A stretch of 63,701 nucleotides of DNA, filler included, from Dugesia japonica (lineage: Eukaryota), in the NCBI GenBank assembly GCA_001938525.1. It is 5 parts of 5 records of this genome, joined end to end, with 100 filler letters (N's around TTAATTAATTAA, not from the genome) between each part and the next. Parts side by side here need not be neighbours in the genome. Positions count along the whole stretch, not along the records: positions 1 to 12,749 come from MQRL01644942.1; 4 more parts are not named here. One strand, 5' to 3'. The notes beneath the pieces are model-generated. The model did not search any database. It saw nothing but the letters and a program-made list of their open reading frames with translations, and was not told the DNA's origin. Within the stretch, counting starts at the first letter, position 1; every line of letters starts with the position of its first letter. Position numbers and translations under genes: made by a program. Shown in pieces: positions 5,850-54,400 of this stretch.

Positions 5850-7111
5850 CTACCATGATCAAAAAATACCCGGTCAACTCAATTTAAAATGAAACAAACT
5901 ATTTATTCAACACAATTTTAATTGTCAACTTTGAAGTAGTATCCATTAACCTCAATGCACCTATGCCAGCGTGTAATCAAATTTTCAAATGTCTTCTGGA
6001 ACTCCTTCTTTGGTATACCCAGTGGTATCAAAACGTTTTGCTCGAAGTGGTTTTTTAGCCTATTAAATAGGAGGAAGTTGCAAACAGTCATATCTGGTGA
6101 ATACAAAGCTTGTTGGATGGTATTTGTATTGAATTTTTTCAAAAAATCTCATATAACTATTGCCTTGTCATGATGTAAAATCCAGGAATGGTTTCTACCC
6201 AAATCATTTCTTTTCAAACGAACAGATTCACGAAATCGTCTCATAATACCTAGATAATACTACATGTTGACTGTTTGACCTTCCGGAATAAATAATAACT
6301 CCATTGTAATTGATAAAAACGGTCAGCATGACCTTCCTTTTTGACTGAAAATGACGTGGTCTTTTTGGTTTTGGCTCTTCCAAAGACTGCCATTGACTTG
6401 ATTGATAATTTGTTTGAGTTTCATACTCAAACACCCACGTTTCATCACCAGAAATTATACGTTTTATAAATGTTTCATCAGAATCAATGTTAGAAAGCAT
6501 GTCCTTTGAAATTTCAACACGATTAAATTTTTGAAATATGTTCAATTCACATGAAACAAGTCTTGCAGTAACATGTTTCAATCCCAAATCCTCATGCAAA
6601 ATGGTTTGAACTGTTCCAAATGATACTTCTGGATCTTCAACAATCTCTCTGATAATCAATTTCCTATTTTCCATTAACAATGACTTTATTTCTTTGAAAT
6701 TTTTGTCGTTCTTTGAGGTTGATGGTCTTCCAGATCTAGGATCATCTGTGACTGTCTTAAGACTATCTAAAAATCGCACATACCATTCATTAGTTGTTGC
6801 TTTTGATAAAGCATTGTTGCCATAGCACTTCTGTAGCATTTTCAAGGTATCGGGACGTTTAACTTCGTTTCTGAAGCAGAATTTAATACAAATTCTTTGT
6901 CCAATTATATCATCCATCCTACACATAGAAAATAAGATTAAAATTAATTTACATAAACTACTGTAACCTTTTCAAATTACGATCTGTGCAGCTGAAATTT
7001 GGTGATGTATTAAAACAAATATGTAGCAACTATAAAAAATAAGAATTACATCTATAGTATTTGTGTGTGAATTTTAAATTGGGTTGACCGGGTATTTTTT
7101 GATCATGGTAG
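5850..7111 (-). mobile_element. Near full-length mariner (DD34D) DNA transposon with an inactivated transposase
   Basis: TIRs of about 40 bp: CTACCATGATCAAAAAATACCCGGTCAAC(T/C)CAATTTAAAAT at 5850 and its reverse complement ending at 7111. TA flanks both sides and the length is about 1.26 kb. Confidence 0.95.
5918..6917 (-). pseudogene. Mariner transposase with frameshifts and a deletion
   Basis: Motifs QRICIKFC, DPRSGRPSTS, ISGDETWV, KVMLTVF, WILHHD and YSPDMTVCNF (third catalytic D changed to N). Split over ORFs 6228-6926 and 5918-6142. Confidence 0.93.
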
Positions 7112-8879: not shown

Positions 8880-9420
8880 GAATTTTTCATTTCCTATATT
8901 CCCAATATTAAAAAAAACAAATTTATTATTATTAAGGTAATAACTGATAATTCTACTATAATTTTTCATTAATTGATTATATCCCTTGAGATTTGATAAA
9001 GAATTAGCGGGAAATGTCTATTTATTTATTTATCTGTTAACACTTCTTTAATATATTGGCAAATAGGTTAAAAATTTCCCAAACGATAATGAAAATCGAC
9101 TGAAATTAATTTTATGAGATAGTTTATTTCAACTATGTGCTAAATCTAAGATATAATTAGAGCAATAAATTGAGAATATCTGTAAAGAATTGTTTTACCA
9201 AACAATGGACCTCTTAACATTGGAGTATTAATGCGATTAACTTCAATACGTAATGTAAGATCAGTATTTTGATAAATATAACTTGTTAATTGATTTCATT
9301 TATTAGTAGAAACAACTATTGTAAGTGGTTAGAAAAAATCAGAAATTAAATGATGTAATAGATTAATTTGCTTAAGCATATCTATATCTCGTCAATATAA
9401 TGATATAAGTTAATAAAAAG

Positions 9421-9580
9421 TACATTGAAACTCCGTTTTTTACGTTATTGAAGGAACTAATAAGCAAACGTAATTAGAAGGAAATCTAAATTCAAAGTTA
9501 GAAAACGGTATTGTAAAAATTGAACGCAAATAGCGAGAACGCTTGAATTCCTGGAACATATCTACTGAATTTCATTGTAT
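9421..9580. mobile_element. Short MITE, possibly pogo/Tigger-like
   Basis: Degenerate inverted ends tacattgaaactc ... gaatttcattgta with TA termini. Confidence 0.4.
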
Positions 9581-10654
9581 TTATATTGAATAATAATCTC
9601 AATAGTAATAATCGATAAACAAACCGCCTAGTCATAGATTTCAAATCTATTTAAGTTAGAAATTTTTTAATGATATTTTATGTTATCATTTAATTATTAA
9701 ACTTTAACTTAAACTTTTTCTTAGGCAATATATTCTAATTATTATAATTCTGTTTATCGATTAGAAATTTAAAATACTAATCTTAACACTTTAAAATTAT
9801 CTCTACGGTCATCATTATTTTCGTTTCAATTTATCTAATAACAGGAAAACTCAAGATTATCCCACACTTGTTTATTCTATATATGGTTAATCTGATATGA
9901 AAATAAAATTATTTCGCAGCAAAAATTAACAAATTAGCAGTTTAAAAAAATTAGACATTCTAATGAGGAAATATATTTGATTTTATATTTAACGCTTTCA
10001 AAACCGTAAAATTGTGTGAATTTTTTAAAAGTGATTTCACAAATGAGTAACAGACCAAAGCTATATTTCCGCCGCCTAAGTGTTACAAAATTTAAATAAA
10101 CCAGAAAACGTAATATCCGAAATATCAAGATCCTCATTTTCTTCAATTATTTCACTGTCACTGCTACTTATGTTATCACCATTATTATTACTATCATTAT
10201 CTTCATGAAGTTGCAAAATCTTAATAACCTTTTGAAACTCAGAGTTTTACAAACTATTAATGATTTCAAACAACTTGACTCTATTCAACGCTTTGCTGCA
10301 AATAATATTGACTGCATTTTTATTGCAATACAAGTCTGTACACAATCATATGCACATAATAACCAATTGTTTGATTACTAATACCACAAATAATAATCGC
10401 TGTTATAATAATAACATTAGTCTACATTATAATAAAATACTCAAATAGATGATGTTTTCCAAGTGCAACAAATATTTCTACAGTTTGATAATGGTTGTTT
10501 TCCTCGNTTATTTGGTGCTGGATAATTCCGGATATACATCGTTGGATTGAAAGGGTTAATTTAATCCTGGTTTATCAGACACTCTACAATCCATATTATA
10601 TTGAATGAAATGCATAATCGTAATTAGTACTTAAATAAACAAAAAAAATAATTT

Positions 10655-10935
10655 TATAATTACAATTATTGTGAGAATAATTGTTGGACTTAACCATTGA
10701 TTGCATTTGAGATGTCATTAAAATAAGGAAAAGCTTCGATCAAAATAAAATTTATTTGTTAAAAAGTTCAAATTTTCGACAATAGTCTTCTTCAGGAACA
10801 TGTTGGGTTCTTGATATATTCAATACAATATAGATCTTTGTTACTCAATTCTTTAGATTTTATCGAAATTTTATTGGTTTATTTTTTTAATTTTAATTTT
10901 AATGATTTTAATTATTATTTTTAAAACAACTCAAA
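10655..10935 (-). repeat. Short dispersed repeat family carrying a hammerhead ribozyme (Penelope pLTR or retrozyme-like), copy 1
   Basis: Begins taattacaattattgtgagaataattgttggac. Closely similar to 13285-13565, with partial copies at 20890-20960 and inverted at 38047-38108. Confidence 0.8.
10766..10799 (-). ncRNA. Minimal type I hammerhead ribozyme motif with intact core
   Basis: Minus strand reads GUUC-CUGAAGA-A-GAC-UAUU-GUC-GAA-AAUU-U-GAAC. Stem I is GUUC/GAAC, the core is CUGAnGA...GAAA, stem II is GAC/GUC, and the palindromic AAUU would form stem III (dimer type). Confidence 0.7.
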
Positions 10936-10968
10936 AATTTTTTTAAAATTTTGGTTCCTTGTCTTCGT

Positions 10969-11005
10969 CAATTCCTGTTGAAGACAAGGTCGAAATATCG
11001 AATTG
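10969..11005 (+). ncRNA. Hammerhead ribozyme motif with a core mutation (CUGUUGA)
   Basis: Reads CAAUUC-CUGUUGA-A-GAC-AAG-GUC-GAA-AUAU-C-GAAUUG. Perfect 6-bp stem I, stem II, palindromic AUAU and an AUC cleavage triplet. Confidence 0.65.
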
Positions 11006-12793
11006 TTATCCAATATCAATTAAAAAAAAACCAAAATTTTGATCAAAGATTTTTTTTATGAATTAAATAAAATTGATTAATATAATAAATTTACTAAAAT
11101 AAAATAATTAAATAACAGAGAAATATAAAATTTTTAATTGAAATTACTTTGAAAAATTAAAAGTACGCCGAAAATTTTGTTTCTAACTATGGCAAATTTT
11201 ATAAAAGAAAATGCCATAGAACTATTTTGACAAGAACCACACAATAATCTTTAATACAAATTAGAAAATATTTTTCCGATTCTGTGTGAATTTTCGAAAA
11301 ATAGTCGACATCATTTCATATTTTGTTTTTGTATTTTCTGAAAGGATACCCATCAAACACAGTGTTTACAAATTTTAAGTTTACATTGATTTAATTTCAT
11401 AACCGCCTTTTTATATGATTTATATTTCAATTATTAAATAAGCGCTTCATTTTTGGAATTAGATAAAGTAAACAAAATTGTTTTATTAAATATGCAAAAG
11501 ACCAATATACAACATTAATTATGAATCTGATCTACTGACAAGTTATANNNNNNNNNNNNNNNNNNNNNNNNNNNNNNNNTGCCGACAGTTAATTAATTTT
11601 TGCACTAAATTTTTCAGTAGGATTTCTATTTTAATTATATTTATTTGAAACTTTGAAAGCAAAATAAACAGCTCTCGACTAAATCGTGAATTATTTTTAA
11701 AATTAAATTTCTTATTAATAAATGTCTATGATTATTAAATGCATATATATGTGTGTGTGTGCACACAATGAAAAATAAATACAGTCAAACGTCGATATTA
11801 AGCAACATAAAAATTTAAATAATAATTTCCTTTGATTTATCACTCCATACAAGAACACATTTAATTCATTATTAAAATTAATTCATAAACTCATTTGTAA
11901 GTATTAAAACTAATGACAAGATTAATTACTAGATATGACTTATCTAATAAATCAATATAAAATAACTGTTTTCTTAAGGTGCGGTCGATAAACGTGACGT
12001 CACATTGAAAATCGAAATGATGCCCAACTTTAAAATTTAGATATGTACCATATAATATCGCACATTTGTGATCTTTTATCCAACTCAATCGTTCTTCTAA
12101 ATATATTTCATGCATATATTTCAGCGAATCCATTTTGAGAATCATTCAATAGGCATTCTGGAAGGTTTGAGAATAATTTAAAAATTTTTTAGAGAGTGAT
12201 AATCTACAGACAACTCTTTCGATATGATTAACTTTTTCAGACCTGATTTTTAATCTTTGGACCAAAAAGATTTATTTTTAGAATTCTGTTAAAGGCGGTA
12301 AAACAAATGAAAAAAACGATGAGAATATAATGCGAGCAGATAAATAAAAAATGTGTGCATAACAATGTGTCAAAGGTACAAGTGATAATAAAACCAAAAA
12401 TAATCTTCACAACTAACGTTCAAATTATTGAACATTGCAATGTGCTTTGGGTCTGAATGTGTGAATAAAAGTGTTTGTAGTTTTGAATTAGGTTTTTATT
12501 TTTACAAATAAGATTTGTAATTTCATAGAACTTGATTTTTATATTTAAAAATTTTTATAAAATTTTAATTCTTAATTTAGCCATATAATTGCTTAAATCT
12601 TTCTTTCAATAATATAGGTTTAACAATTTCATATTTTTAATTTGATTGATTCATATAACAATAAAGTTTTATTTTAAACTGCACTATTTAATATAATATA
12701 ATATATTCTATTATATTATGTTATATTATATATTATATTATATTATATTNNNNNNNNNNNNNNNNNNNNNNNNNNNNNNNNNNNNNNNNNNNN

Positions 12794-12805
12794 TTAATTA
12801 ATTAA
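12794..12805. other. Artificial contig-joining spacer TTAATTAATTAA (also at 28336, 37991, 53269)
   Basis: Identical 12-mer with stops in all six frames, embedded in N runs four times. Confidence 0.95.
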
Positions 12806-13284
12806 NNNNNNNNNNNNNNNNNNNNNNNNNNNNNNNNNNNNNNNNNNNNATCCTATTACGTAAAATTTCACCGATGAAATTAATTTCATGACATAATTTG
12901 TGTGCAAATAATTTTTCCTAACTAAATACACAGGAAAAAAGTAGCCTCTCTTACGTAATAATCTCGCTACAAGATTAATTACATTATGAAATGCACACAA
13001 ATGCGTGCCACCGCCTATTTACATTAGAAAAATACAACCTCAGTTATGTAATAATCCGATTACGTATAGGGGTGGGGGGGTACTGCATGTGTGCAGAGGT
13101 TCTCCGCTACTATCCATCTACTTTCTATTAATATTTTATTTTTATTGCATTTGAATTTTATATTTTGGTTGTCAGAAATTCAACAATAATCTAGAATTAG
13201 ACTCTAATTGTAAAATGGAAACCTTAATCTTTTTTATATAGGCTGTTGTATATAAATTATTCAGTAGATAAATATAAAGTTTTA

Positions 13285-13565
13285 TAATTACAATTATTGT
13301 GAGAATAATTGATGGACAATTAACGTTTGATCGCATTTGAAATTTCATTAAAATAAGAAAAAGCTTTGATCAAAATAAAATGTATTTGAAAAAAGGTTCA
13401 AATTTTTGACAATAGTCTTCTTCAGGAACATGATGGCTTCTTGATATATTCAATACAATAGATCTTTGTTACTCAAATCTTTAAATTTTATCGAAATTTT
13501 ATAGGTTTATTTTTTTTTATTTTAATTATGGATTTTAACTTTTATTTTTAAATCAACTCAAAAAA
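13285..13565 (-). repeat. Hammerhead-repeat family, copy 2 (GAAA changed to AAAA, probably inactive)
   Basis: Colinear with 10655-10935. The minus strand reads GUUC CUGAAGAAGACUAUUGUC AAAA AUUU GAAC. Confidence 0.8.
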
Positions 13566-14745
13566 TTTCAAAATTTTTTTTTAATTAATATAGAAAAGTC
13601 TTTTAGATATTTTAGATATTTAAATATATTATACTTTGAATTTTTTAATTTTAAATTTTTGTATTTTTTTTTTGAAAATTTTTAAAAATTTTAATTTGTA
13701 TTTTTTTATATATAATTCGTTATTTTAAATAAATGTTATTTTTTTAAAATTTTTTTTAAAATTCATTCAAAAATGAACTAATTTCACACAAAATTATAAA
13801 ATTAATTTTTTTGAACTAAAAAAATTTTAAAAGTTTCTTTCAAATTCGTATTAGGACAACTAATTAATATATTTAATTAATAGTATATTTAATTAATATT
13901 ATTTCGTTTTTTATATATTTTATACATAAATATATTTATTTTGAACATATTATTTATAGATATTGATATAAACTTTTTTTTTAATCAAAAATATTTTTTC
14001 AAATATTATAATTGTTGAACACTACATTAATCTGAGGTTTATCTTCTTTAATTAATATTTATTCATGTTACAAAAAATAATACCGTTCTTCTTATTAACT
14101 TTGACAAATAAGCATTATCAGTAAAAAATAATAATAAATAAATAAATAATTAAATTTCAAAGTTGTTTTTTAATCTTATAAAGTCATAAATATGTTTAGC
14201 TAAATGTCTTAAACACCATGTCAGTTGTGTTCTGATCTTGTTTATAAATACAAGTGTAATATCATATATATTGAAGATACTTCTTTCTACAAAAATCGAG
14301 GAGTAAATTAGTTTTTAATATTTGTTGAAGAGACTACATAATTGATTATACAATATTAAGAAGTTTTAAATGGTTTAAAACATTTACTACTGTAAAGAGA
14401 TGAATATTTTGTAGAAAGATGCTGCAGTAAAATATAGTTTGAAATTACCTTTAAAAATATTCATTAAAAAATTGTCAGCATATTTTATTAATTCAAAAAA
14501 TTTTAAGTAAAAAAATTTATTTTTCAAATAATTATTTTCTCATATAAAAAATTACCATTAATTTTAGTCCAGGTTTTTTCAAGTATTGTTCTATTGTCAA
14601 TATCAGCTACGCAAAATCATTAACAATTTACTAAGATTAAATCAGATACTTTGAGGTTCTGTTCGATGCACTGATATCGGCGGGACTTCCGACTTGGTTT
14701 CTTTAAAGTAGTAAAACAAAGAGCAAAAATTAATTAATAAATTAA

Positions 14746-14782
<37 letters not shown>

Positions 14783-16234
14783 TGACTTCTAAATCAGTTA
14801 ACAAGTTATTTCATTAAAAAACATCTTAAATGTATTTTTAGATGAGTTTGAAGTACTAATCGAAGAATTTTATTTACAACTTGGTTCCATTAAAGATTTA
14901 TTCACAAAACAAAAACTATAACCTTCATTATATGTTTATTCAAACAAATTAAGACGGAAATCTTAATAATTTAATTTATTAAAAATTTAAAATAAAATAC
15001 TCATTCCATCATATAAATTAAGTAAATTTATCAATCAGTTTAAAATAAGTAAACAAAAATTATTTATATAAATATTTAAACTCATTCTTAATTTTTATCT
15101 AAAAATTTAATATTCCTTATTTACATTTTTAACAATTTAATTTCTTACCAATTTTAAATTTTATTTATTTTTAAAAACATAATTTAAGAAAAACATTTTC
15201 AATCAAAACATACAAATTTCAATCCGCTTTTCAAAACATTCTCACAACTATAGTATACAAGATTTAGTTTATAGTTAAAAAGTGATCCCATTCAATAATA
15301 CAGTAATTTGATTGGATAAAGAAATTCTAAGTTGTATTTCTTTTCACTTTTAACTTAATATAATTATATAAATACACCTAATTCTGTTTTTATGTGAATA
15401 TCATTTAAAACGGTGCAAAAAAATCATTACCTTCCTGTTTTGCGTGACTTGATTTGATTTACCGCAATGAGTATTTTGAATAGTCTCAAAATCAAGTTTG
15501 TGTAACGAAGAAAAATAGCAAATATAAAGTTATAATTAATTGAAAAGAGTGATAGGTTCTTATGAAAATTTTCAAAATTAAATTTATCATTAATTATCAA
15601 ATCTATTTCAAATATTTTCTAAATCATACAAACCGAAACTACAAAAGTCAACAAAAAAAGAAATTTTCAATAATTACGATGACAGCTTCTTTTTCATTTT
15701 ATAAAGTTATAAAAATAAAAAAAATAACAAATTGTTTGTGTGTGTGTTTGTATGTTTATATTCCATCAAAATTGGAATATCTTTACTTTATCAAACGAAA
15801 ATTAAAAGCTAGAAATATTTTTTTTTATTATAATGAAAATGGAAACAATGAATAATAATAATGGAATGTTGTTTTTAACTGAAAAAATAATTATTCTATT
15901 AAAGATTATTCATGTTGTACAAAACCGAACACTTTGAAAGTTTATCATAATAATTAATGAAAATTAGTTGAAATAAATTAAATAATTTAAAATCGAACTA
16001 ACCAACAATGTATGAGTGGCCTGAAAATGTTTAATGAAAATGATTTATTCAATTCATTTAATAAATATAATAAATTATAGGTTTATAGAGGGATAATTTT
16101 TCAACTTTAATTAACTAAATTTATTAACAAATAAAAATAGATTAAAACTATTTTTAATTATCAAAGGTATTCGTTTATGATAATCTGATATATAAACATT
16201 TATCTTTGAAATTATGCGTATTAAATATACATAT

Positions 16235-17300
16235 ACTTACTCCATCCCAATAAAAATTGGATTTAATAAATTTAATTTTAATTTAGATACATTGTTTTAT
16301 TTCTAATTGACAATTGTTTTAATTAACTATTTAGTTTAAATATTTTGGAAAACTTGAATTTTAAAATGGAAAATATTTACGAAGACCAAAAAGTTTTGTT
16401 TCTATTATATTATGAACTAAAACTCTTATCAATTACCAAAATTTTCCAATAAATTTACAACAACGAATGGTGCTTCAAGCACACAACTTTTAATTCTCAC
16501 TATTAACAAAGGTTTTGCAATCAAACCCNTTATTATTGATTTTTACTTTTTAAAATTGTATTTGCTATAATATATACATTTTAAATTTACATTAATAATT
16601 TTATTTACATTTTCATTCTACATGATATGTCTTTTTATTTGAGCTTTTGTGGTTAAAATTCCTAGCTTTATTTTGTTTTGTTTTATTAACTTTTTTATTT
16701 ATTATTTCTCAATTACTTCAAAATGAAGAAATAAAATTGATTTCCCGCAGGTTTATAAAAAATAAATTCTTAAATAGGAAATGGAAAAGGTGGGACCGGA
16801 ATACGGTTCTATCAAAGAATTATGTAAATAAAAATTAAGCCAGAAAATTGCGGGACATGTTTTTTGAACTTTACACATTTGATAGGATAGTTCTGGAATG
16901 AAATCATACCTATAGTCTTCAACAAGGTGTATTGGTGAGAAAACCATTTCATCAAAGATAATAATGCTCGTCAACATGTTGGTAAAAGCAACATGCAAAA
17001 ATTAAACGATTTTGATGACAGTCTAACTTGAACAGTCGCTGTTTTTGAACCAGCCCGTTCAATCTCGTGAGTTAAACATCACAGATCTTGGATGGTTTCA
17101 TTCCTTGAATAAGCGATGGCAAAAATTTATGTTTAAAAAAATTTAAGTGGACAACTTTACAAGCTAAACTTTGGTCTACTAAGGAAGAAACAATAACTTC
17201 TCTCTTCGAGACAAAATTTTGATTCGTTGACCAGATAATTGCTTCAAGAGGAGCGGCTTTCAATGTTACTCATAAATTATTAATATTCACATTTTATCTC
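16235..17300 (+). mobile_element. Degraded Tc1/mariner-superfamily element (same family as 53390-54400)
   Basis: Shared 5' end tacttactcca..aaaa(a/g)tggatttaataaatttaatttta. Decayed transposase remnants: QDNNARQH-like at about 16955 and NQPVQSRELNITDLGWF at about 17050. Confidence 0.6.
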
Positions 17301-18614: not shown

Positions 18615-18647
18615 GTTCAATATTTCGACATCGCCTTCATCACGAAA
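18615..18647 (-). ncRNA. Degenerate hammerhead motif
   Basis: Minus strand reads UUC-GUGAUGA-A-GGC-GAU-GUC-GAA-AUAU-U-GAA. The core has C3 changed to G. Confidence 0.45.
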
Positions 18648-20320: not shown

Positions 20321-20889
20321 AACATATATTGAAAATATATATTAATATTAAATATCATTAAAACAAACTTGGACAATATGGACCGAAGGAATCTAAAAAA
20401 TAATTAAAAATAAAACAAAGTTTTCTTTTTTTAAGTTTCTTTTCTTAATTATTAATGCTATAATTTATTTTATTAAATAAGTTTAAATTATGCTATTAAA
20501 AATAAATTTTCAGCACTATTTGTCGTTCCGGAGTCGAAAAAAGAATAAAAATCGAACTATTAACGATTTAAAACAAAGTTTAAATTATAATTAATTCAGT
20601 ATGAACTAGAAAATATATTTTAATTACTCGGATTTTTCATTACAAACTGCGGCTTAATAAAGGTGGATATGTATTTTAGAGCTGGGATTATAAAGAAAGA
20701 TCAGGATACTTTTCTATATCCCTAAAAGCTGCAAACTTTTGTAATTCGGACTTCATACGTATTTTTATGTATAAAGCCGCGTGTTAACAGAAAAATAGAG
20801 TATGACATCATCTTTTATCTAATAAATAAAGCACAAATGAAAAATAAATATATCTAAAAATCATAAAAGAAATATAACTTTAAAACATT

Positions 20890-20960
20890 ATAATTACAAT
20901 TATTGTGAGAATAATTGTTGGACTTAACTATTGATCGCATTTGACATTTCATTAAAATAA
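20890..20960 (-). repeat. Truncated copy of the hammerhead-repeat family
   Basis: ataattacaattattgtgagaataattgttggacttaactattgatcgcatttga matches the start of 10655. Confidence 0.75.
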
Positions 20961-21429: not shown

Positions 21430-24400
21430 AAAATATCGAATGTTGGTTATGTCATAAGATCGGTCTTACTTAAGTAAATTGTCCGACAAAACAGGATATA
21501 TAAGTTGAGATTGTCCAAATAAAAAAACCAACAAAATGTTTTGATTGTTGAAAGGTTGGCCATTATAGAAAGTTATGTCAAGAAGTGAGGTGTAAACGAT
21601 GAAGTAATAGTGGACACAGCTTAGAAAAGTGCTACATAAATTTGAAAATGAAAAGAACAAGTGAGAAATTTATATCAAGAAACCGATATAATTGAGTACA
21701 TGCGATTGAAGATGAAAATGTCAATTCAAACGATATATATCAGGAAGTGTATGAAAGTGATTCCAAAACACAGTCCCAAAAGGGCAGGGCTCCACCAATT
21801 GAAAAATGAGTTGGAGTCATCCATTTTTAAATAAAATTATTGATTATGCTCAAATGTTCAAAAAGCGGGATGATATCGCGAAAGTTACAGAAAAAGTATA
21901 CAGGTTCTTAAAGAGAGTAAATTTTGCGGATGACAGAAAAGTAGAACGGGATGGAACAGTTGAAGCAGAACAGAAAACAATTATTTTGTACCATAAATTG
22001 CAAGGCAGATCAAAATTACAGTATCGATTCAAGGAAATGAAGTTAAATGTCTGTTAGATAAAGGGGCTAGAATTACCGTTATAAGTTTGAGTTGTTTTAA
22101 TAAATTATGAGAAATAAATGAAATTTTAGAAATGAGTGATGAAAGATTGCGTTGTGCAAATAATAGTACACTGAAAATTGTTGGAAAAGTTAGAACTGAA
22201 GTGATACTTGATGAGGTTTGCAAAGAGGTAACTTTCTTAGTTGCTGAAAGATTGACACTAGATCTGATAGGAGAAATAGATATGCAGAGGATTTTTGGAT
22301 ACCAGCTTATGCGAAAGGTAGATACCAAAACGAATGAAAAAGTCTAAAATTACATTTGCAATATTGAAGCGAACTTTGGAAGAAAAATTAAAAAAAGGAG
22401 AGCCATTTAAATATTTTGAAGATTGAAGACGATAAACGGTTATTAAAAATCATCGGAAGTAAAGAAGATGCTTTTATGATAGATAAATGGGATGTAGGAC
22501 GCACAAATCTGACAAGACACAGAATAATCACAAGTGGTCAACCAATCATTGGAAAACCGTACAGGCAACCAATGAACTTAAAAGCTATTCAAAACCTTTT
22601 CGAAAATAATATTATCCGGAAAAGCAACTCTCTACGGAATACCCCACTGATTTGAGTTTGGAAAAAGAAAAGAAGGACATACAAATATGTTTGGATTTTA
22701 GACAATTAAATGAAGTAATGAAAAGACAAGCCTTTCCGATGCTTAATGTTGATGAAACGCTTAACAAGTTAGATGTTGCGAAACATTTAAATTTAATAGG
22801 TTTGGGAAATGCAAACTATCAGGTAGAGCTCAAAGAAGAATCTCAAGAAAAAACGGCGTTTTCAAAGAAGCACGGACAATATTGTTTTAATAGAATGCCA
22901 TTTGGCATCGTAACGGCGCCAGAAACATTTCAAGAGATGATGAGAAAAGTTGTTGGCGGAATAATTTGTTTATCTTGATGACATTCTGATATTTACAAAC
23001 AATAAAAATCAACAATATGAAGTAACTGAAAAAATATTGACGGAAATAATAACCTCTGGTCTAAAACTTCTTTGATGGTCTGAAGAAATCTATAATGACT
23101 GCATCAATATTGTGTTTTCCATAGAACTTATATTAGATACAGATGCCAGTTTTGATACAATTGGTGTAGTATTGTAACAGAGAGATAAGGAAGGAAGAAA
23201 AAGAGTTGTTATCTTTGGATCACACTCAATGACGAATTATGAAAAGAGATATTGCATCACACAAAATGAGTTATTGTCCGTTTATTATTTCTGCATGCAT
23301 TTCAAACATGCGGTTTTATTCTTAGAACATACCATAAAGCTTTAACGTTTATGATGACGACAAAGAAACCAATTATGTCCCAATTCCAGATATGGATTAA
23401 TTATTTGAGTAGTCTATACATGGTTTGGAATATTGAAAATGAATTTAACATGGTACTGTAAATATGTTATCTAGACCGAGATGTGTGGTATGTGTGCAAT
23501 GTCAAATTTTACATGAAGTTGCCAAGAAAGAAAAGATTTTTAACGAGAATGCTGAACATAATTTAAAAGGAAATAAAAGGAGCAATTAAACATTTCTGAA
23601 GAAACAGATTTAATCAAGAAAATAACAATTTCGGATGACAAAATACATGAGACAATAAGAAAAATACACCAATTATTGTGTCATTCAGAAGTTGAAAAGG
23701 TGTACGAATATATGAGAAACAAATACATTGCAAAGAATTTGTGGAGCCAAATACAGAAGATAGTTCATAGTTTGTTAAATTTGTCAGAAGATCAAAGTAA
23801 TGACAACATTAACTAAAAAGAACACAAAGAGATTAGAAGCTACAAATTTGTTTGAAGTCATATTTACTGATATATATGGGCCAATGCAGGAAACAAGTGG
23901 ACGAAAAAAATACATTCTTTGAAATAATCGGATAGTGAAGTAAATATCTGGTTCTTATACCATTGCCTAGACAAGACGATGAAACCATACGAAAAGCTAT
24001 TTTTGAGCAGGGGATTTTGATATTTGGATGTTTGAGAGGGATAAGACTAGATTGTGAAAAAGCTTTTGAATCCAGAGTTATAAGAGAGTTTGCACTAAAG
24101 CTAGATATTAAACTTTGCTTTTTGAGTCATAATGCAAACGAACAAATTGAAAGACAGTTCAAGACAATTCAAGAATTGATTATTGCAACACTTTAGGAAA
24201 GAAAGACAAGAAATCGGGCAGATCTTTTACTGGAAATAGAATTAACAATGAACGCAACAAAGTAGAAGACAACTTTAAAGATCCCTGATGAGATCATATT
24301 TAAAAAGAAAATTAGAAGAGAAAAATGATGAGTCAGACGTTTTAGATAGAACTAAAGAAAACAATTCAGAAGTGATTACCAACAGAGTATTCAAAGTGGG

Positions 24401-30898: not shown

Positions 30899-31124
30899 TA
30901 TTAGGATGTTTTAATATTATACATAAAAATTTTATGAAAAGTTTCATAAAAGTTTTATTTAATAATAATTTAAGAAATTTAAAATAAAAAAAAGAAAATA
31001 ATTAAAACAATTAATCTGTTTTAATATTGCTGTTTTGTTAAAATAAATTTTTCACTAGACTTCTTGTAACTTATTAATAAATATTTATGGATGGAAACTG
31101 CAGAAAGTATAGCAGCGGCTAATA
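30899..31124 (+). repeat. 5' LTR
   Basis: Direct repeat of 33961-34173 with scattered substitutions and indels. Confidence 0.9.
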
Positions 31125-33960
31125 TGGCGTTCCACACAAGTGCGACAAAGGATCTGCTTGTACAAGATTTGAGGCCAAAAACATATTATAAAGGAGATCA
31201 CGTTGAGAAGTTTATAGTCAAATGCCGAAAGTATTTCGATGCAGCAAACGTATCCAAAAGTACCAGAGAACTGNTAATTGTAGGCCTACTTGATGATAAA
31301 TTGAGGAGAAGATTCGAAAAAACCGATAATGGACATGGTTACGAAGATAGACTAAGACGTTTATTCGTCAAGGAAAAGTTATTTTTTAAGGATATTGAAA
31401 GCGTATTGTCATACAGACGACAAGAAGAGGATGTTGGCAGCTTTGTGGAAGAAATTGACAAGATGGTTGGGTTAGTGATGGCATATAACGATAAGGAAGA
31501 AATGAGGAAAGAACTTCTTATTAAAATAATTAACGTTTATTGATGTGTGTGTAATCTGGCGTTGTCTAAAATATTGTTTTTTTATCTACTTGGCATTGCA
31601 TTTCTAAAANNNNNNNNNNNNNNNTGAAATTTGCTGACATAAAAATTACTGAGATTTTGTTGTGATAGCGGCAAAATTAAGAAAAATGTAACAATCCAAA
31701 ATATTAAAGATTCGGACGGCATTATTACGCTTATACGAAACATTGATAGAATTGAGGATAAAGAGTCAATAAATGCAATCCGTCCCAGTTTCAGAGGAAC
31801 CCTAATGAACAATAACCAACAATACAATAATTTCAAACGACGAGAGGATTACCAGACAAGCAGAAATCCAAGGCTGGTGGACAACAGACAAAAGGAGATA
31901 TTATGTTACGGTAGCAATAAGCCGGGTCATATAAGAAAAGACTGCCCATTGACACTCATAAGAAAATGTTGCGGATGCGGATCGACCGAACACATAAGGC
32001 GTTTTTGCATGAAGATAAAATTCCTAAAGTGTACACTTAATGGACATCGATGATCAACAGAGTTTTTAAGGAACTGACCAATATAGTAATACAGAAAGCA
32101 GATGTACAATTACGATGTGCTAACAATTCGATAATGGAAACGTTAGGACAGGTGGTGGTTGAGCTATGTATTGAATAACAAAGAGAAATGTTTAAATATA
32201 CGATAGTAAAACATGCGTGTCCAAATATCATAGGAGGAATTGAGCTACAAAAGCAATTTGGCTTTGAGTTACAAAGAAGATCAAGCGAAGAGAATGAAAT
32301 ACATATCGGTGTTTTAGAAGCAAAATTTGGAAGACTCATATCGGACAAAGTACGAGAGCAGCAGGCTATAAGGATAATTCAACCAAACAAAGAAGCACGA
32401 AAGATAATAGTAGCTAATAAACGAGCCTTCATGGCTGACGATTGGGATATTGGATGTACCATGCTCGTGAAGCATAAAATAATAAGGAAAAAAGAGCCAA
32501 TCAACATAAAGCCATGGCGTCAACCGATAAACTTAGAAGACGAATTTGAAAAAACATTACCGAACTTAGAAGAGAACGTCATCATCAAGAAATGTAATTC
32601 AAAATGGAATATGCCACTAGTTTGCATATGGAATAGAGAAAAGAAAAGGCTGAGATTATGTTTGGACTTTCACCAGCTGAACCAAATATCGGAGAGACAA
32701 GCATATCCAATGCCAAACACAGAGGAACTGCTAGATAGATTAAATGGAGCCCGTTTTTCAACACAATTGACCTAGGCAATGCGTATTATTAGGTTAAATT
32801 GGAGAAATCGTCACAGGAAAAAACAGCGTTTTCAACCAAAAAAGTTCAATACTGTTTCACAAGGATGCCGTTCGGAATTGCCGCAGCACCGGTACATTCC
32901 AAAAATTGATGACAAACGTACTGGGAAGCAGACCTGAAGCTATGGTGTATATGGATGATATTTTAATTTATTCCGATAATGCCATGGACCATTTCAAGAC
33001 ACTCGACACTGTGCTGAAAGAAGTAACCAAATCTGGATTACGTATCAAACCCAAGAAATGCAGTCTCCTGCGGAAAAAGGTAAAGTTTCTAGGACATATA
33101 TTGAACGAAAATGGCATCCGAATAGATCCTACAAAAATGTAAATTATNNNNNNNNNNNNNNNNNNNNNNNNNNNNNNNNNNNNNNNNNNNNNNNNNNNNN
33201 NNNNNNNNNNNNNNNNNNNNNNNNNNNNNNNNNNNNNNNNNNNNNNNNNNNNNNNNNNNNNNAGAAACAAAGACAAACTAAAGAGACACTACGTAGAAAG
33301 AAATGTATACTAGCCATAATAGATCACTTTAGTAAATATATATCAATGTTGGCCATAGGAAGACAGGATGAAGAAACCATATGCAAAATAATCACGGAAA
33401 AATGGATCCTACGGTTTGTAGCACGAAAAGATATACATACGGATTGCGGAAAGACCTTCGAATCAAAGGCGTTCAAGGATATGGCATACAGAATTGACAT
33501 AGAGCTATGTTACTTGAACCCACACCACCACTGGACAAATGGCTTGGTTGAGAGACAATTCAGAACCATCAAGGACTGCATAAATGCATCTGGAAAAGCA
33601 AATTAGGACAATAATATTTCAGAATTAGAGTTGATGATGAACGCCACATATCAAAAGACTATTAAAACTAGCCCAGCAGCGATGCTGTATGGAAGGGAGA
33701 TTCGAAGAGAAAGATGTATCGATCATGAAGACGTAGAAGAGAAATTGATCAGTGGAGAATTATACAACAACCCAGAGTTTTCAAAATTGGTCAGAAAGTA
33801 TTGGTGAAAAACGAAGTACGGTCAAAGGATAAGGAAACATACGATGGCCTATACGAGATAAAGGAATAGATTCGTGAAAGCAGGTACAAGCTAGAAGACA
33901 AGCAATGAAGAGTAATATACAGAAATGTAAAAAAAGTTGAAATTTCTTAACGAAGGAGGA

Positions 33961-34173
33961 TGTTAGTATGTTTTAATATTATACATAAAAATTTTATTTA
34001 ATAATAATTTTAATAATAATAAGAAATTTCAAATAAAAAAAGAAAATAATTAAAACAATTAATCTGTTTTAATATTGCTGTTTTGTTAAAATAAATCTTT
34101 CACTAGACTTACTTGTAACTTATTAATAAATATTTATAGATGGAAATTGCAGAAAGTATAGCAGTGGCTAACA
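33961..34173 (+). repeat. 3' LTR
   Basis: TG...CA ends with 6-bp inverted termini, preceded by a polypurine tract. Confidence 0.92.
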
Positions 34174-34653: not shown

Positions 34654-34948
34654 ATGTAATACTAACAATAAATATACTTAAAATATTTGAAAATATATTG
34701 AGGTTATAAAAAGATTAAAATTTGATTTTAATTTTGATTCGACAAATATTATCTTAAATACTTAAGTTTCTGTAATTAAAGAATTCATTTTTTAAAAACA
34801 TGAATTGAATCCGTTGAATACTTAACCAAATAATTCGTCAACAAATAATCGAGAAATTACTGTATTTATTTGGAAAATAACAGTTATATCTATAATTAAA
34901 CTTTTCTGCATTTTATTTCATTATTATCTTAATTTTTGTATGATTTAG

Positions 34949-37946
34949 AATAGATACTTTCTTGTTGACATCCTGGAATGTGTCCAACTCTTTAGCTTTT
35001 TACAATATGTTACAATATCACCAAATGTCATCAGTCGGTTATTTTATTCTACCACAAGCCAATCAGAAACCCCATGTCAAATCAGAAGGAAATTCAAATA
35101 ACTTATTTTCAATTGACTTTAAAAATATTATTAATGAAATTATGACTTCAGTAAAAAAATCCGATAGTTCTCTGTCACAGCCTTTAGCCGACATGAAAAA
35201 GAATTACAAGTTATTTTATAAACTTGGGTCAGGTACTCTTCAGATGTTTTGTATATTTCCACCGACAAAAGATCTTTTTAAACCTTTGAAGTCTTTATAT
35301 GAAGCATGGGATAATAACAAGGAAAATTTATCATTTGAAAAATTATTGTGTGATACATCATTATCTTGTATACTTGTTTGGAATTCTGATGACAAACAAA
35401 AACCTCTGCGTATTTTAGTTACTGGAAGTTGTCATGAAATTACATTAATTAAATCCCTGGCTACATTTTCCAAGACAGATTCTTTGCTGAATNTATTTAA
35501 TGAAAATAAATTTCCAGAATCTAAAGAAACAAAACCATGTCGAATTGAAAATACTGCAAAATCTAAAACAGTAGAATTGGAAAAATCAAATCAAATAAAA
35601 AAAGTTATTCAATCTCCACAAAAATCATTCACTAGAACAATATCTGAAACTCACAAAACAACATCAAAACGACCAATAATGCCACCAAGGTCTAGAACTG
35701 TAGAAAGATCAAAACCTGATTCTGTAAATAAAAAGGTACCAATAAAAGGCAAAACCATTAAACCTAGTATTGAAGATATTAATAAAGTCAAACCGATCAA
35801 AGTTGTTAAAGAAGCGTCGCAATCTATCGAAAATGTAAAAGTTATTGAATGTAAAAGTAAGGAATTATCATCTGATAATATCACAAATGAAGACACATTA
35901 ACTAATATTGGCTCAATGGAAATACTTGGAGGAGTTGAGGATTTTGCTTATGTATCTGATTTAGATGGGACGAACAACAAAATGGAAGTGAGTGAAGAAA
36001 TTAATCAATTGGACGATGCTGAAAGAAATGCAAAATCTAAACGAGATAATTTTATAGAAAATGAAAATGTAATCACTGGTTTACAAGAGATATGCAAAAA
36101 CAATAGCAACATTGAAGTCAACATTACCGATGAAATTGAAAACAAAATGAAAATGGTCGAAGAAAATATTACTGTTACAACTGTAGAAGGTCAACATTCA
36201 GAATTTATAGCACAGACTCACGATACTGTAAAGATCAGTGTAATAAATGACAGCAGAGATTCAGATATTTTTGACCAGATAATATCAACAGAAATAGATT
36301 CCGACCAAATTATGAATGATTCATTAAATAAAAATGAATTCAATGACAAAACTTTAACTAAAAACACAGAAAATACAAATCTGAAAAGTAATACAGAATT
36401 TGACGAATTCGATATGGAAGTAGTTGAAAAGAAGGAAATTGATTTTCAAGAAATCATCCAATCCAATAACGTTGATACAGTAACAAATATCACTGAAGTT
36501 GAGCAGTTTGAAGTTGTTGATTTTGTCGAAATAAAACCAAGTTCAACCGAAGAAATAGAGATACATGAAAAGTTAGAAATTGATAGTGAGAAGGCAGAGA
36601 TAAAGAATCAAAAATTGCTTGGTGGAGATATAGAAAATATTACAGAATTATTGGACGAAAAAATTAATGAAAATGAAAGCACAAAATCAATTGAAGCAAC
36701 TGAAATTAGTAATGGAAGTGAAGAATTTGAAGTTATTGAAAAAATGAATGAAACAGCAGTGGAAAAAAAATTAGAGACACCAATAGAATCTTTTTTAGAC
36801 TCCAAAAAAAATGAAATACTTGAAGATATCAGAGATGTAATGGTTCAAGAAGGTGATGATGAATTCTTGAATACCAGTCGACGTGATAAATCAGAATTAG
36901 AAATTAAAGATAAAATAGAAGTAAGGGTTAATAATAAAAATAAAGAAATTTCTCAAAATATAGAATCAGAAATAATTGAAAAAGTTGGACAATTATGGAC
37001 AATTGTTGATGAACCAATTAGAGTTCCTGAAGAACTTGAATTGAATTTGATCAATAAAAAAAATAAAACATCAAATGAGTTGAATGTTGAAGCGANTTCT
37101 ACTGCGCATAAAGATAATATTCAAAATGAGGTTGTAACCGACTCACTCTTAAATACTATCATTGAACCGGAAAATAACACAGAGAAAATAGAAATAATAA
37201 CCAATGAATTAGAAGATTTTAAAGAAAAAGAAGAAAGTGATATTTTAGAAATTGATAATCAGAAAAATCAAGAAGATGATAATTTGGATGATTTGGAAAA
37301 CGATCTAATTGAGGATTCGAAAATCCAAGAATCCATTGAATCAGAATCAATAAACGAGGAAAATAAAAATGAAACCGATATCAAAAGCGAAACTTCTAAA
37401 AATGTTAAAAATCTGAATTCTCTATTAACAACTAAAGTTGAAAACAATGAAGAATTAAATAATGTTGAGAATATCGTAATTGATGATTCAGAAATAGACA
37501 TAAAGTTTATAGAATCGGATAACAATGATAATGTTATTACTGATAATTCAGAAATCAAAGAAACTTTTGAAACAGAAATAATAAATGAAGATAAAAATGA
37601 AAATGAAGTACCTATTAAAAATAATGAAAATAAAATCGAAGATGAGAGAGCAGAAATCAATACTTTTGAACATAATGAAGAAACAAATGAGGAAACTAAG
37701 GAATTGAGTAGTAGAAATTTATTTGAAGTTTCAAAAGATTCTGTTGAATCAGAAGCAATAAATAAAGAAAACGAAACAAAGATTAAGAAATCAGAAAATA
37801 TTTTAGATTCTGATATACTGCTGACACATGACGAAAGCAATAAATTAGAGATAAATAATAAAAAAGATAAAAAAAATGAAGGATTGGAAAATGATGAAAA
37901 TGCTGTAAAAGAAATTGTAGAAATCAATGATACTACTGAACATAAG
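34949..37946 (+). CDS. Large exon of the same MAP1/futsch-family gene: conserved domain followed by a Lys-rich and then long Glu/Asp/Asn-rich low-complexity region; truncated at contig end
   Basis: Acceptor tttag ends at 34948. The phase-2 splice gives ...DIPK-IDTFLLTSWNVSNSLAFYNMLQ (cf. MAP1B DRVDSILLTHIGDDNLPGINSMLQ). LFYKLGSGTLQMFCIFP and SLSCILVW..KPLRILVTGSC resemble MAP1 LYHKxGxGRLDMYVLNP and SITALVVW..KIVRVLFPGNAP. The frame is open for about 1000 codons. Confidence 0.85.
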
Positions 37947-38046
37947 NNNNNNNNNNNNNNNNNNNNNNNNNNNNNNNNNNNNNNNNNNNNTTAATTAATT
38001 AANNNNNNNNNNNNNNNNNNNNNNNNNNNNNNNNNNNNNNNNNNNN

Positions 38047-38108
38047 GAAATCTTAAATGCGATCAATGGCTGAGTCCAACAATTATTCTCACAATAATTG
38101 TAATTATA
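38047..38108 (+). repeat. Inverted partial copy of the hammerhead-repeat family at a contig start
   Basis: Reverse complement of 10655-10715. Confidence 0.75.
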
Positions 38109-38149
38109 AAGAATGATAATCAAATGATCATAAAAGAGCTCAGCGCATT

Positions 38150-42541: not shown

Positions 42542-44719
42542 ATAATGACTTTTTGTGCAACAATAAGAAGAATAAATTGAAAAAAAAGAATGGTTAGAAA
42601 TACAACATGTCATTGAAAAGGTATAGTTTATTTAAATTGTATTAACTAATTAATAAGTTGCTATTATTTATACAAATCCTTGGAGCATACCAGATTTAGG
42701 AGAAGATTCAGTATTCTAGGGTTTAGAACTATACCTGTACCAGATTAAAGAAAAGACACGAGTTGATGATAATGAACCAATTAAATTTCAATGTTTATGC
42801 TTTAATAAATCTTAGATAATAAATCTTGTTATTTCTTTTACTTCTAAGTGTTTCATATAAACATTTATTGAAAAAGTATGAGTTAAATGTATTGGGGGTA
42901 AATAATGAAGTGATTGAATAGTTAATTGTATATTTTAAGTGAATTGAACAGATTTAGGTAAAGTAAGTAAGTAGTGTATTTAATGTTACCGTATCCCACT
43001 TTTTTTACTCTATCCATTGGTTTTACTGTATCATATTAAATGTATAGGTTACATATGTCAATCAGTATTTAATTATCAGAAATATATCCTACTCACATCT
43101 CCCCCATCCGACTTGGTGCAAGCCATTCAATATTTCGAAAGATTTCAGTACCATTATTTTTCTTAATTTTATAGCTCCTATTGTGTTGTTTATCAATTAT
43201 TGTGTATAGACCATCGTATCATTTTTCTTGTTTATTTCTAACGTCAATTTAACGCCAAACTTTGTCATCAATTTTAAAACTCCTTTCTGTATTATTGTGC
43301 ATTTGATTCGATATATCCTCATTGGTTAGAAATTTATCTGAGCTTTCAAATTTATCTATACTTAGCTTTTTTCCAAAAATTATTTCTACAGGACTTATTT
43401 TAGTACTTTTAAGAATTGTTGATTTCATAGTAAAATCTATTTGAGGTAAACATTCTACCCAATTTCTGAATAATTTATCTTCGACACAGCGATATATCCA
43501 GTCTCTAATCGTTCGAAATTGCCGTCCAATTTGACCATTTGCTTGATGGTGGTATGGACTAGAATATTCTATTTTAAAATTAAATTTCTTTGCCAAATCT
43601 TTAAAATTCGATGATAAAAAAAATGTTCCGTGGTTAACATGAATCGATCTTGTTGAACCAAACTTCAATAACCAACATTCACTTAGAATCTTGATTAAAG
43701 TTTTATCATCTTGATTTTTTACTGCTTTTAGTAAAATATATTTGGTATAGTGATCAATAATTGCAAATATATACTTTTTCCTGTGTTTGTCAATTTAAAT
43801 GATCAGCAAAAATCTATGTAAATAGATTCAAAGGGTTCATTAGATGCTAATTTCAGGCATTCCTCTTTCGTTTTTATTGTATAAACTTTTCCTTCGTGAC
43901 ATATTCTGCAATTCTGAATAATTTTCTTCACATATTCTTCAAAGTTTTCCATATAATATTTTTGTTTCATAAAATCGTANACCTTCTGAAATCCAGCGTG
44001 ACATAATGTCTTGTGCGTTTCCGTTATGATGTCATTTCGTTTATCCTTAGAAACATATATTTTATTGATTTTAAAAACAATTCCGGGTTTTATATTCAAA
44101 CTTTACTGTCTCTTTACTATCAATCTTATTTATTATATCATTAATTTCCTCACTATTTCTCTGCATTTCATATTTAATGATATCTTCATTTACAACTAAT
44201 AAACGAGTTTGGGCTTTTTTAGTTTAGCATCAGCGTGTTCCAAATTACATTAATTGCATAACTGGTTATTCAATCTTGATAAAGCATCTGCGTTTGAACG
44301 TTTTTCTCCTTTTCTGTAATCCAACTTGATATTTAAACTTCTGAGAAAATTTATCCAATTTTGAAATTGAGCTGTAATTGGTTTTCTTGTTGTTCTCAAT
44401 ACAAATTGTTTTCAGTATAAATAGTGTTTAAAGTGAAATTTAGAAAGTAATTCTTTTCTCGTAATGCAGTATCCAACTTCATGTTTTGACATACTTTTTG
44501 AACCGTAAGCAACGTCTCTTTTTCTTCCAAAATTATCTTTTTGTGACAATGCAGCACCAATACTGTCAAAACTTGCATCCGTATCTAGAATAAATTCACG
44601 ACTAAAATCAAGGTGACATAATATAGGAGCATTTGACAGTAGGTATATATGTGCGAACTGCCTCACATGTCCCCTATCTTCCCCATTTTTTTCGTCTCAC
44701 ATGCTTTTTCTTGTTTCAA

Positions 44720-45039: not shown

Positions 45040-46420
45040 TTGGCTTCAAGGTAATAAGCTTTTTGGATGAATTGCACAGTCTGAGATTCATCTTTTTCTT
45101 TAGATTTTCAACTGTTTTTCCGTATAATATGTTGTTTAAAAGCTTATAGTAATTATTATCTAAGCCTGATGTGCTTTTAGATCTTAGATCAGTATTTTCA
45201 TCTAGGGTTTAAAAAAATATAATCTAAATAAAAAAAATATAATTAAGAAAATATAATCTTATGTGAACTTTACAGCTCTATGTATTTTAGCAATTCTAAC
45301 ACCTAGTTGCATGCACAGTTGTAATAATCGCCTATGTACAACATAATTAAGTTTGGTATTATGTGTTGATAACAGCTTCTTTACCTTACTTCCAGGTGGG
45401 CTCTGATGTTCGGCTCCAACAGGTAAATCGCTTAAATAATCGTGTAACTCTTCCGGTATTTCAATGTCAACTTCTACTGTGTAACCATATGCTAATGATT
45501 CTAGATCCGATGTTCTACACTCTTTCAATATTTGCTCAAATCCTGTATGTATCCATTGAAAATCCATGTATGGTAATTTCTGGCTTAATACCCATCCATA
45601 TACATTATTTATATCGATGTACAAAAGCTCAGTGTCTTTGTCCAATTTCACATAATGTTTGTTGACAAATGTAAGTCCACTTCTGATTCCTCTCTCAAAA
45701 AATGTGAACATATCATTGTCTGTAAGCAATTTGATAGGATCCTTTAGGGTCATCAATGTTGATGCCCAGCTCATGCCTAGAATTCCAAAGAACGTTAGCG
45801 GTTCCAGTCCGTTGTGTTTTAGTGACTTAGTTCTAAATTTTTGAAAAAAGTCAGATAGCAAGAATACATCTAGTTTTAGATAAATCATCATATAATCCAG
45901 TAAATCCTTGCATCCAGTAATAAGCCACATTTCCAAAACCTTCTGATACGATTGTTCATTGACACCATTTCATATTATTGGCATACACTCAGTTTCTTCC
46001 AACACTGTTAAGCTAGTAGCAAATTCATATGGGAAAATTCACTTTGATTTGATGATTCTGTTGTCATTAAACTCCTTGGATGTTAATGGAGTTGATTGAA
46101 TTGTTTTAACAGCTGCATCCNATCAACTATTAATAAACTGATATGATACTTTATGTTTAAGTCTCCATTGTGGGCAATCAAGCATAAGAATTTCTCGCTT
46201 GTAGTCGGTATGCATAAGATATTCTAATGTGCAAATTGACTGAGTCCGTATTTCAATATATGATGCAAGTCTAAGATTATGAAAGACTATTGGTAAATTA
46301 TCTGATTTTTCTACTAATATTGCCTTTTGAAAATGTAACACCAACATATTTACTGGTGAAATGATCATGATCTCTAACCAGTTTTACTATATCTTTCTTG
46401 CATAAATGAAAAAGTGACAA
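45040..46420 (-). pseudogene. Protein-primed family B DNA polymerase (Polinton/Maverick, adintovirus-type), fragment
   Basis: Motifs VRDHDHFTSKYVG, LPIVFHNL, FPYEF, YLKLDVFLLSDFF (ExoIII), GIRSGL, YIDINNVYGW (motif A), GYTVEVDIE and YKLLNNILYGKTVEN (motif B). Motif C is absent (truncated). Confidence 0.92.
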
Positions 46421-53013: not shown

Positions 53014-53389
53014 CTGCAACAACTTCAACTACTTGGTAAATCACTAGTTAATGCTCAAAAAGTAATTATAAACTCGTAATTCAACATAAAATAATTAATA
53101 ATTTCCTTATCCAAAATAACTACATCTCAAATAATACAAACAACCTTTATAGATTAAAGTAAAGTAAAATAACTTAAATTATTTTAATTTTTTTAAATAT
53201 TGTAATATACCGACTTAAGTAAAANNNNNNNNNNNNNNNNNNNNNNNNNNNNNNNNNNNNNNNNNNNNTTAATTAATTAANNNNNNNNNNNNNNNNNNNN
53301 NNNNNNNNNNNNNNNNNNNNNNNNAAATAATAATAATAATAATAATATTAATAATTATTATTATAATGAAACGAAGTTTTATTATTTAT

Positions 53390-54400
53390 ACTTACTCCAC
53401 CACATAAAAAAGTGGATTTAATAAATTTAATTTTAAATTAGATAAATTGTTTTATTTCAAATTGACATTTGTTTTAATTAACTATTTTTTGTAAATCTTT
53501 TTGAAACGTTTGAATTTTAAAAAGGAAAATCTTTTAGAGGACAAAATATTATTGCTTTTATAACATTATGAAGGTTCTTGATCTAAATGAACAAGGTAGA
53601 ACCCGAATACGATTCTGTCAAAGAATTATGTCGAGCTTTCAAAGTAAATAAAATTTATACATGTAAACTGAGTAACATGTTTTCTGAACGTGGCACATTT
53701 GATAGGAAACCGGGTTCTGGAAGACTTTATACTATAAATTATGAAAAGAGACTGGCACCAGTGTTGAATGCCATTCGTAATTTCCGCGATAGTAGCCTCT
53801 TCGACATTTCAAAAACTACTGACATCCAAAAGAGCAGCATGCAAACAATTGTTGTAGATGAAAAATTCAGATTTGACCATAGGAAAATGTGCACTCTCAT
53901 AACACATGATCAGAAGGATAAAAGATTGAAGTGGTGCTGACAGCATGAGATACGTGTGTAGATATTTATGAAAAATGGTCCATGCTACATTTGTTCACTC
54001 GCGAAAGATATCATAAAAATAGTCCCATAAAAAAATTCTTGTATTATACAAGGCCAATATCCCGAAAATAATGATACTAACTGCTGTTGCAAAACCGAAC
54101 ATTGAAATGAATTTTAAAGGTCCCGTTGAAATTTGGAGTCATATTATGAAGACCAGGGATCGTCGAAAAATTACAAAGAAGTCGAGGTGTACAAAGTTGA
54201 TAGCACAATCAACTAACTCTTTATGAATTGATGCATAATGGAATCAAGCCTGCAGTCTGCAACAAGTTTTTGTGGAGAGAAAAACCCTTTCCATCTAAAT
54301 GGATATTGCTCGTCTACATGTTGGTAAAAGAAACGTGCAAAATTTAAATAATTTTGGTGATAGTCTAACTCCAATATTCTCTGTTATAAACAAGCTACTG
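53390..54400 (+). mobile_element. Degraded Tc1/mariner-superfamily element
   Basis: HTH region GTFDRKPGSGR...LITHDQKDKRLKWC. The 5' end is shared with 16235. Confidence 0.7.

Follow-up and report, generated by a model that had tools for sequence, protein, structure and literature searches.

We conclude that the segment around 10655-11070 of the analysed Dugesia japonica DNA (63,701 nucleotides, filler included; hereafter the window) is probably a head-to-head junction between two related, very abundant repeats, A on the minus strand and B on the plus strand, both likely fragments of Penelope-like pLTRs, and that the double polarity of its hammerhead ribozymes is likely a by-product of insertion. 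To judge by sequence features, both repeats would belong to Penelope-like elements (PLEs). An earlier note had treated 10655-11070 as one short non-coding repeat; it is not one unit, as the halves occur apart. The note's assignment to Penelope-type minimal hammerheads in non-coding, retroelement-like repeats is supported. The locus and its relatives in the window comprise the following features.

10651-10952, minus strand: repeat A copy 1 (A1), about 300 bp, 88% identical over 314 columns to 13270-13577
10660-10685, minus strand: 3' stem-loop with loop CUCAC at 10671-10675 (fold z -3.0, a stability reached by 2 of 200 shuffles), present in four window copies
10766-10799, minus strand: HH-A, a minimal type I hammerhead with intact core (pattern scan), predicted cut between 10770 and 10769
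10945-10966, minus strand: inverted partial copy of B, made of exact reverse complements, not a hammerhead
10967-11065, plus strand: copy of repeat B, a related subfamily, which begins 2 nt before stem I and decays or stops near 11065
10969-11005, plus strand: HH-B, a minimal hammerhead with core variant A6U (pattern scan)
13279-13577, minus strand: repeat A copy 2 (A2), 88% identical to A1 (aligned at 13270-13577), without an intact B alongside and with a weakly B-like 5' edge
13396-13429, minus strand: hammerhead of A2, G12A (looser scan, run without a null)
18616-18646, minus strand: third minimal hammerhead, of the diverged subfamily C, C3G, solo (looser scan, run without a null)
20888-20960, minus strand: 5'-truncated 3'-end fragment of repeat A (94.5% over 73 nt)
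38047-38110, plus strand: 3'-end fragment of repeat A next to a stretch of N (92% over 64 nt)

In the minus-strand motif the core is CUGAAGA with an additional A, stem II has 3 bp and stem I 4 bp, and GAAA, the palindrome AAUU and U17 are present. The motif agrees with the core C3 U4 G5 A6 N7 G8 A9 / G12 A13 A14 A15.1 / U16.1 H17 (consensus as in PMC3088659, in part) and is the sole zero-mismatch match in the whole window, which bears out the intact core reported there earlier; its stems I and II form the predicted minimum-free-energy (MFE) fold (z -1.15). HH-B lies on the opposite strand, the two motifs pointing outwards across a measured gap of 169 bp (about 170 bp in the earlier note). The stems and palindrome described for it stand (6-bp stem I, 3-bp stem II, AUAU, with C17), but the intact core does not, since it reads CUGUUGA, that is, with U at position 6, a change that had gone unflagged. 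In its letters HH-A thus fits the definition of a minimal hammerhead ribozyme (min-HHR), whereas HH-B fails on core integrity. All four motifs in the window have an extra base between positions 9 and 10.1, a G10.1-C11.1 pair and a palindromic stem III; the core is intact in only one of the four. A6 is treated as conserved in PMC3088659 (in part), where a natural A6C variant is low in activity; the available part of that paper does not mention A6U, and a literature search on A6U hammerhead cores brought up nothing relevant, one twister paper being returned.

The palindromes of HH-A and HH-B could, by their letters, form only two of four pairs with each other, so that neither motif could complete stem III of the other. 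Swapped dimers are possible for both motifs but are not the predicted MFE structures (-3.6 vs -11.0 kcal/mol for A, -4.8 vs -17.9 kcal/mol for B), in folding models that omit core contacts. Dimer cleavage of hammerheads was reportedly described by Lunse et al. in 2017. For min-HHRs, dimer cleavage in vitro is low (PMC4209133, in part). At this locus both motifs are probably inert: HH-A because it has no intact same-strand partner (the A2 copy carries G12A), and HH-B because it is mutated by A6U and predicted to be masked by the fold-back described below.

Both motifs are beyond chance. A match with palindromic stem III, a stem II of at least 3 bp and at most one core mismatch was found in none of 30 shuffled windows (local order-2 Markov); under looser criteria, one of the 30 shuffles held a match at zero mismatches and three at no more than one. 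The core pattern alone had 31 metagenome matches (stem I of at least 4 bp in 0 of 31), one match in prokaryote genomes (L032) and none in the viral collection. Rfam returned no match at gathering score across the whole window, and at 10600-11150 it gave two weak unrelated matches (E 1.2 and 3.2), with no hammerhead family. The compensatory stems and palindromes (AAUU vs AUAU) noted earlier were confirmed: among the window's four motifs, both sides are changed in 4 of 11 pairs, the stem III palindrome included, and 93% of cells are paired, a level reached in 1 of 500 shuffles, although these are four non-independent sequences from which the structure itself was derived. Retention of the hammerhead structure in three subfamilies speaks for selection acting on the RNA. 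Polymorphism in contigs of the public run X1 (0 of 34 sites in HH-A vs 10 of 114 downstream) does not differ significantly (p 0.067).

Repeat A consists, in order, of an AT-rich 5' part, HH-A, about 115 nt, the 3' stem-loop and a fixed 3' end. A2 recurs 2.6 kb from A1, and within 64 kb there are four A-type 3' ends whose 5' extent is variable; repeat A, that is, displays the PLE trait of a fixed 3' end with 5' truncation. The 5' limits of A1 and A2 nearly coincide; this counts against the PLE reading, as it would fit a defined non-autonomous unit better than random truncation. The 3' stem-loop lies 112-116 nt past the point where stem II begins and is, by analogy, a candidate reverse-transcription start structure: in the anole PLE Poseidon PAc, the stem-loop at which reverse transcription starts lies 111-118 nt after stem II (PMC11167929, in part), the match in spacing being one comparison that could be coincidence. 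A convincing target-site duplication was not found, the matches being AT-rich and only 6-9 nt long, and terminal inverted repeats were not seen in repeat A. A1 and A2 were also considered as the two pLTRs of one full PLE, a candidate that was rejected, the scanned open reading frames (ORFs) of the 2.3-kb spacer having no PLE domain. The 5' edges of the two A copies show a weak likeness to B, their scores being reached by 9 of 2755 and 18 of 2654 random segments. At these edges, 13574-13591 and 10945-10956 resemble B's post-hammerhead segment on A's strand. The B-like letters hint at a same-strand B-A composite.

Downstream of its hammerhead, B resembles A (0 of 2000 shuffles as similar against A2, 68 of 2000 against A1), and an opposite-strand joint, 11054/10708, in two X2 contigs suggests that B shares A's 3' end. 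The subfamily C motif at 18616-18646 has a G-U pair in stem II, and its downstream sequence is loosely B-like.

The fold-back reported before the plus copy is present at 10957-10989 and is the window's only hairpin with arms of at least 14 nt and at least 35% GC. Two stretches of B are copied here in inverted form, 10957-10966 being the exact reverse complement of 10980-10989 (10 nt) and 10945-10956 that of 11029-11040 (12 nt), with 39 nt skipped between the copied pieces. The stretch 10945-11045 folds back with z -5.6 on the plus and -6.1 on the minus strand (0 of 200 shuffles), and the predicted hairpin would tie up the HH-B core and the 5' strand of its stem II. The opposite-strand UGACGA, which had been taken for a preserved hammerhead core, arises where the 10-nt piece inverted from 10980-10989 meets B's first four bases (10967-10970). 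Position 3 is U, a partner for stem II is missing, as is GAAA, and no hammerhead was found there even with two core mismatches allowed; the claim is not confirmed. An inverted copy adjoining the 5' end, which is a PLE trait, is present at this locus as the fold-back and the head-to-head partner.

The abundance of the repeats was assessed in public contigs from four of 24 listed runs (X1, X2, X4 and X9, from four studies and two organisms, X9 being the second), aligned at 80% likeness; one of the four is possibly the window's source. The aligned contig pieces number 27,041 (X1), 27,280 (X2), 26,562 (X4) and 4,245 (X9), and both hammerheads are deeply covered; summed depth, which is not a copy number, suggests between a few thousand and about 13,000 copies. 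The breakpoints given here are among those listed (15 of 44 joints, 12 of 55 rows of letters between joined sides and 24 of 1509 rows of loose ends). Hundreds of contigs, their flanks unrelated, have loose ends before 10651/10652, and 140, 147 and 44 contigs of X2, X4 and X9, respectively, have them before 10967, with a consensus agreement of about 0.45-0.5. The unrelated flanks at both places mark family ends, and most B copies listed have other DNA upstream. The depth ramp of the contigs fits B copies that match from about 10967-10969. The table of contig differences has no variant row at 10978-10979, a missing row being no proof of sameness. Together, ramp and absent row hint that A6U is common in family B; it also speaks in favour of this that the precise register of the fold-back would be better accounted for by an AC-type core.

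At 80% likeness, joints whose sides have fewer than 30 letters are often false, and those listed are short-sided and are given as hints. Among them are same-strand joints that lead head to head from A-type 3' sequence to the start of B (10700-10973, 10753-10973 and 10746-10971); as A and B seem to have their 3' end in common, most head-to-head joints may join B to inverted B. In one X4 contig (10746 to 10971, depth 20.4), the A-type letters stop at the predicted cut of HH-A and are followed by B. Single contigs also contain head-to-tail partial tandems (10802 to 10648 and 10802 to 10767). The joint from 11042 to 10967, with four letters between, has a depth of 34-98 in X1, X2 and X4 and reads either as HH-B in an 80-nt tandem or as a further small fold-back on the 5' side. 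A further joint, from 10650 to 10970, found in one contig each of X1, X2 and X4, leads from left-flank-like sequence to B and skips A; it is possibly an empty-site allele, or else a chance AT-rich match (side 22). At the junction bin 10934-10955, contig cover is 2,000-39,000x below HH-B and no listed piece bridges it, which is not evidence, given that 10874-10915 was skipped as repetitive and AT-only DNA aligns poorly. The earlier note had itself named independent adjacent halves that do not co-occur elsewhere as a refutation of its reading. This largely holds, but other head-to-head joints with different breakpoints exist, one of them with A-type letters.

The proposed head-to-head PLE junction would arise as follows. 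An autonomous PLE elsewhere would supply reverse transcriptase (RT) and a GIY-YIG nuclease, cDNA would begin near the 3' stem-loop, and copying would proceed back through the uncleaved hammerhead, after which snap-back and template jumping could resolve the 5' junction and yield the inverted neighbour. A and B may have arrived in one event or in two, and cutting in the source element would require a dimer within one subfamily. No RT or GIY-YIG domain was found in 27 of 54 short ORFs scanned at 9000-15500, and no GIY-YIG domain in 10 of 20 long ORFs scanned across the window. An optional tail of 30-40 bp is a PLE feature, and PLEs are known to be truncated at the 5' end, to form partial tandems and to have an inverted, 5'-truncated copy next to them (Craig et al., 2021; PMC8557442, in part). 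In the study of the anole PLE, hammerhead cleavage was unnecessary for insertion in vitro, and no RNA reads were seen to end at the cut site (PMC11167929, in part). The locus resembles complex insertions of EN+ PLEs in its 5' truncation, in the inverted copy at its 5' end and in its AT-rich target (PMC8557442 and PMC11167929, both in part), and Poseidon PAc both in the stem-loop spacing and in a hammerhead that, as proposed here, is copied uncleaved (PMC11167929, in part). It differs from EN+ PLE insertions in that the inverted partner is of a different subfamily and is accompanied by a 22-nt fold-back, and in that no ORF starts at stem II, only a 27-codon frame beginning just before the core (same sources, in part).

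In Schistosoma, dual min-HHRs lie about 100-700 bp apart on opposite strands, most copies being solo and truncated (PMC4209133, in part). The motifs described here agree with the min-HHRs of that paper, in the part available, in having a type I minimal core, an extra base after A9, a G10.1-C11.1 pair, a palindromic stem III and a short stem I, and in occurring as several sequence families per genome, mostly solo, with some opposite-strand pairs 100-700 bp apart. Unlike the Schistosoma families, whose stem II has 7-8 bp, stem II here has 3 bp; A6U in HH-B and the lack of a parent ORF found here are further differences (PMC4209133, in part).

Among the alternatives, it is quite unlikely that A and B are dispersed monomers of retrozyme-type families, that is, families with tandem arrays and small circular RNAs that are mobilised by PLEs, which became neighbours by nested insertion. 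Such an origin would accommodate the head-to-tail joints within single contigs, including the one from 11042 to 10967 (depth 34-98 in X1, X2 and X4). The A1/A2 unit of about 300 bp is within the retrozyme size range (PMC7229834, in part), and a 2026 preprint derives retrozymes from pLTRs (bioRxiv 10.64898/2026.07.22.740005, in part). Like metazoan non-LTR retrozymes, the repeats are non-coding, AT-rich and about 300 bp long, have a type I hammerhead and are probably derived from PLEs (PMC7229834, in part). Retrozymes are, however, defined by tandem units (PMC7229834 and bioRxiv 10.64898/2026.07.22.740005, both in part), and no tandem unit of 150-450 bp was found in 9500-14500, so there is no tandem array at the locus; the motifs are of the minimal PLE type and not of the canonical one, with loop contacts, by which retrozymes are defined (PMC7229834, in part), and the copies end not at the cut site but at a constant 3' position about 115 nt beyond it. 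Abundant linear and circular unit RNAs are a further mark of retrozymes.

It is very improbable that the repeat is a Helitron- or MITE-like non-autonomous DNA element with a captured hammerhead and with the 3' stem-loop as its terminator. Such an element would account for a sharp end with a subterminal hairpin, for the AT-rich targets and for the want of a clear target duplication. A CTRR end is a hallmark of Helitrons. The end seen here is not CTRR, terminal inverted repeats were not seen in A, and three subfamilies have retained the hammerhead structure. Least credible, and indeed highly improbable, is the single element proposed by the earlier note, a non-autonomous ambisense unit with active ribozymes on both strands that yields circular RNA. 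Both motifs are real and 169 bp apart, and one other contig (X4, 10746 to 10971) joins A-type letters head to head to the start of B. Against this, A is present without an intact B at 13279-13577, the upstream flanks of many B copies are unrelated, and the breakpoints of the other joints differ. HH-B carries A6U, related to the A6C variant of low activity (PMC3088659, in part), and the predicted fold-back would mask it; moreover, each strand has a single, outward-pointing motif and there is no repeated unit, so that no unit-length monomer would come free from either.

Elsewhere, the window is AT-rich, with a GC content of 17-34% per 2 kb, and its domain scan covered 10 of the 20 long ORFs. A mariner-type transposase remnant (HTH_48, Transposase_1) lies at 6228-6971 on the minus strand, and fragmented LTR-retrotransposon-like frames (RVT_1, rve), which we infer to be gypsy-type, are found at 22610-22978, 31070-33606, 43249-43794 and 46824-47941. 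A fragment of type-B DNA polymerase at 45259-45969 on the minus strand (E 4e-5, below cut-off) is possibly from a Polinton-like element. The long plus-strand frame at 34944-37994 has a weak MAP1B MBL-like domain (E 8.8e-6, below cut-off) with a long acidic stretch after it, and a homolog search with this frame found none. Two-copy dispersed repeats are present at 16190-16373 / 53345-53528, 16937-17043 / 54279-54385 and 30963-31062 / 34011-34110.

A literature search found no title or abstract start on this repeat family, and the available part of PMC6431247 contains nothing specific to this locus; the supplements of PMC4209133 (in part), which give min-HHR families by species, may already include it. 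A more consequential picture, which we hold to be rather unlikely, is that subfamily B has spread to thousands of copies with A6U, cutting being dispensable or A6U being tolerated in dimers, and that insertions of the intact subfamily A have their 5' end exactly at the cut site, some having been joined head to head to B by template jumping between the subfamilies. If this were true, the genome would be a natural test of in vivo cutting by animal Penelope hammerheads. On the present reading the locus matters little, being a further case of an animal genome that holds PLE-type minimal hammerheads by the thousand, and of an inverted junction of the ordinary kind; it would be weightier if a family-wide A6U core or cut-site-terminated insertions held up.
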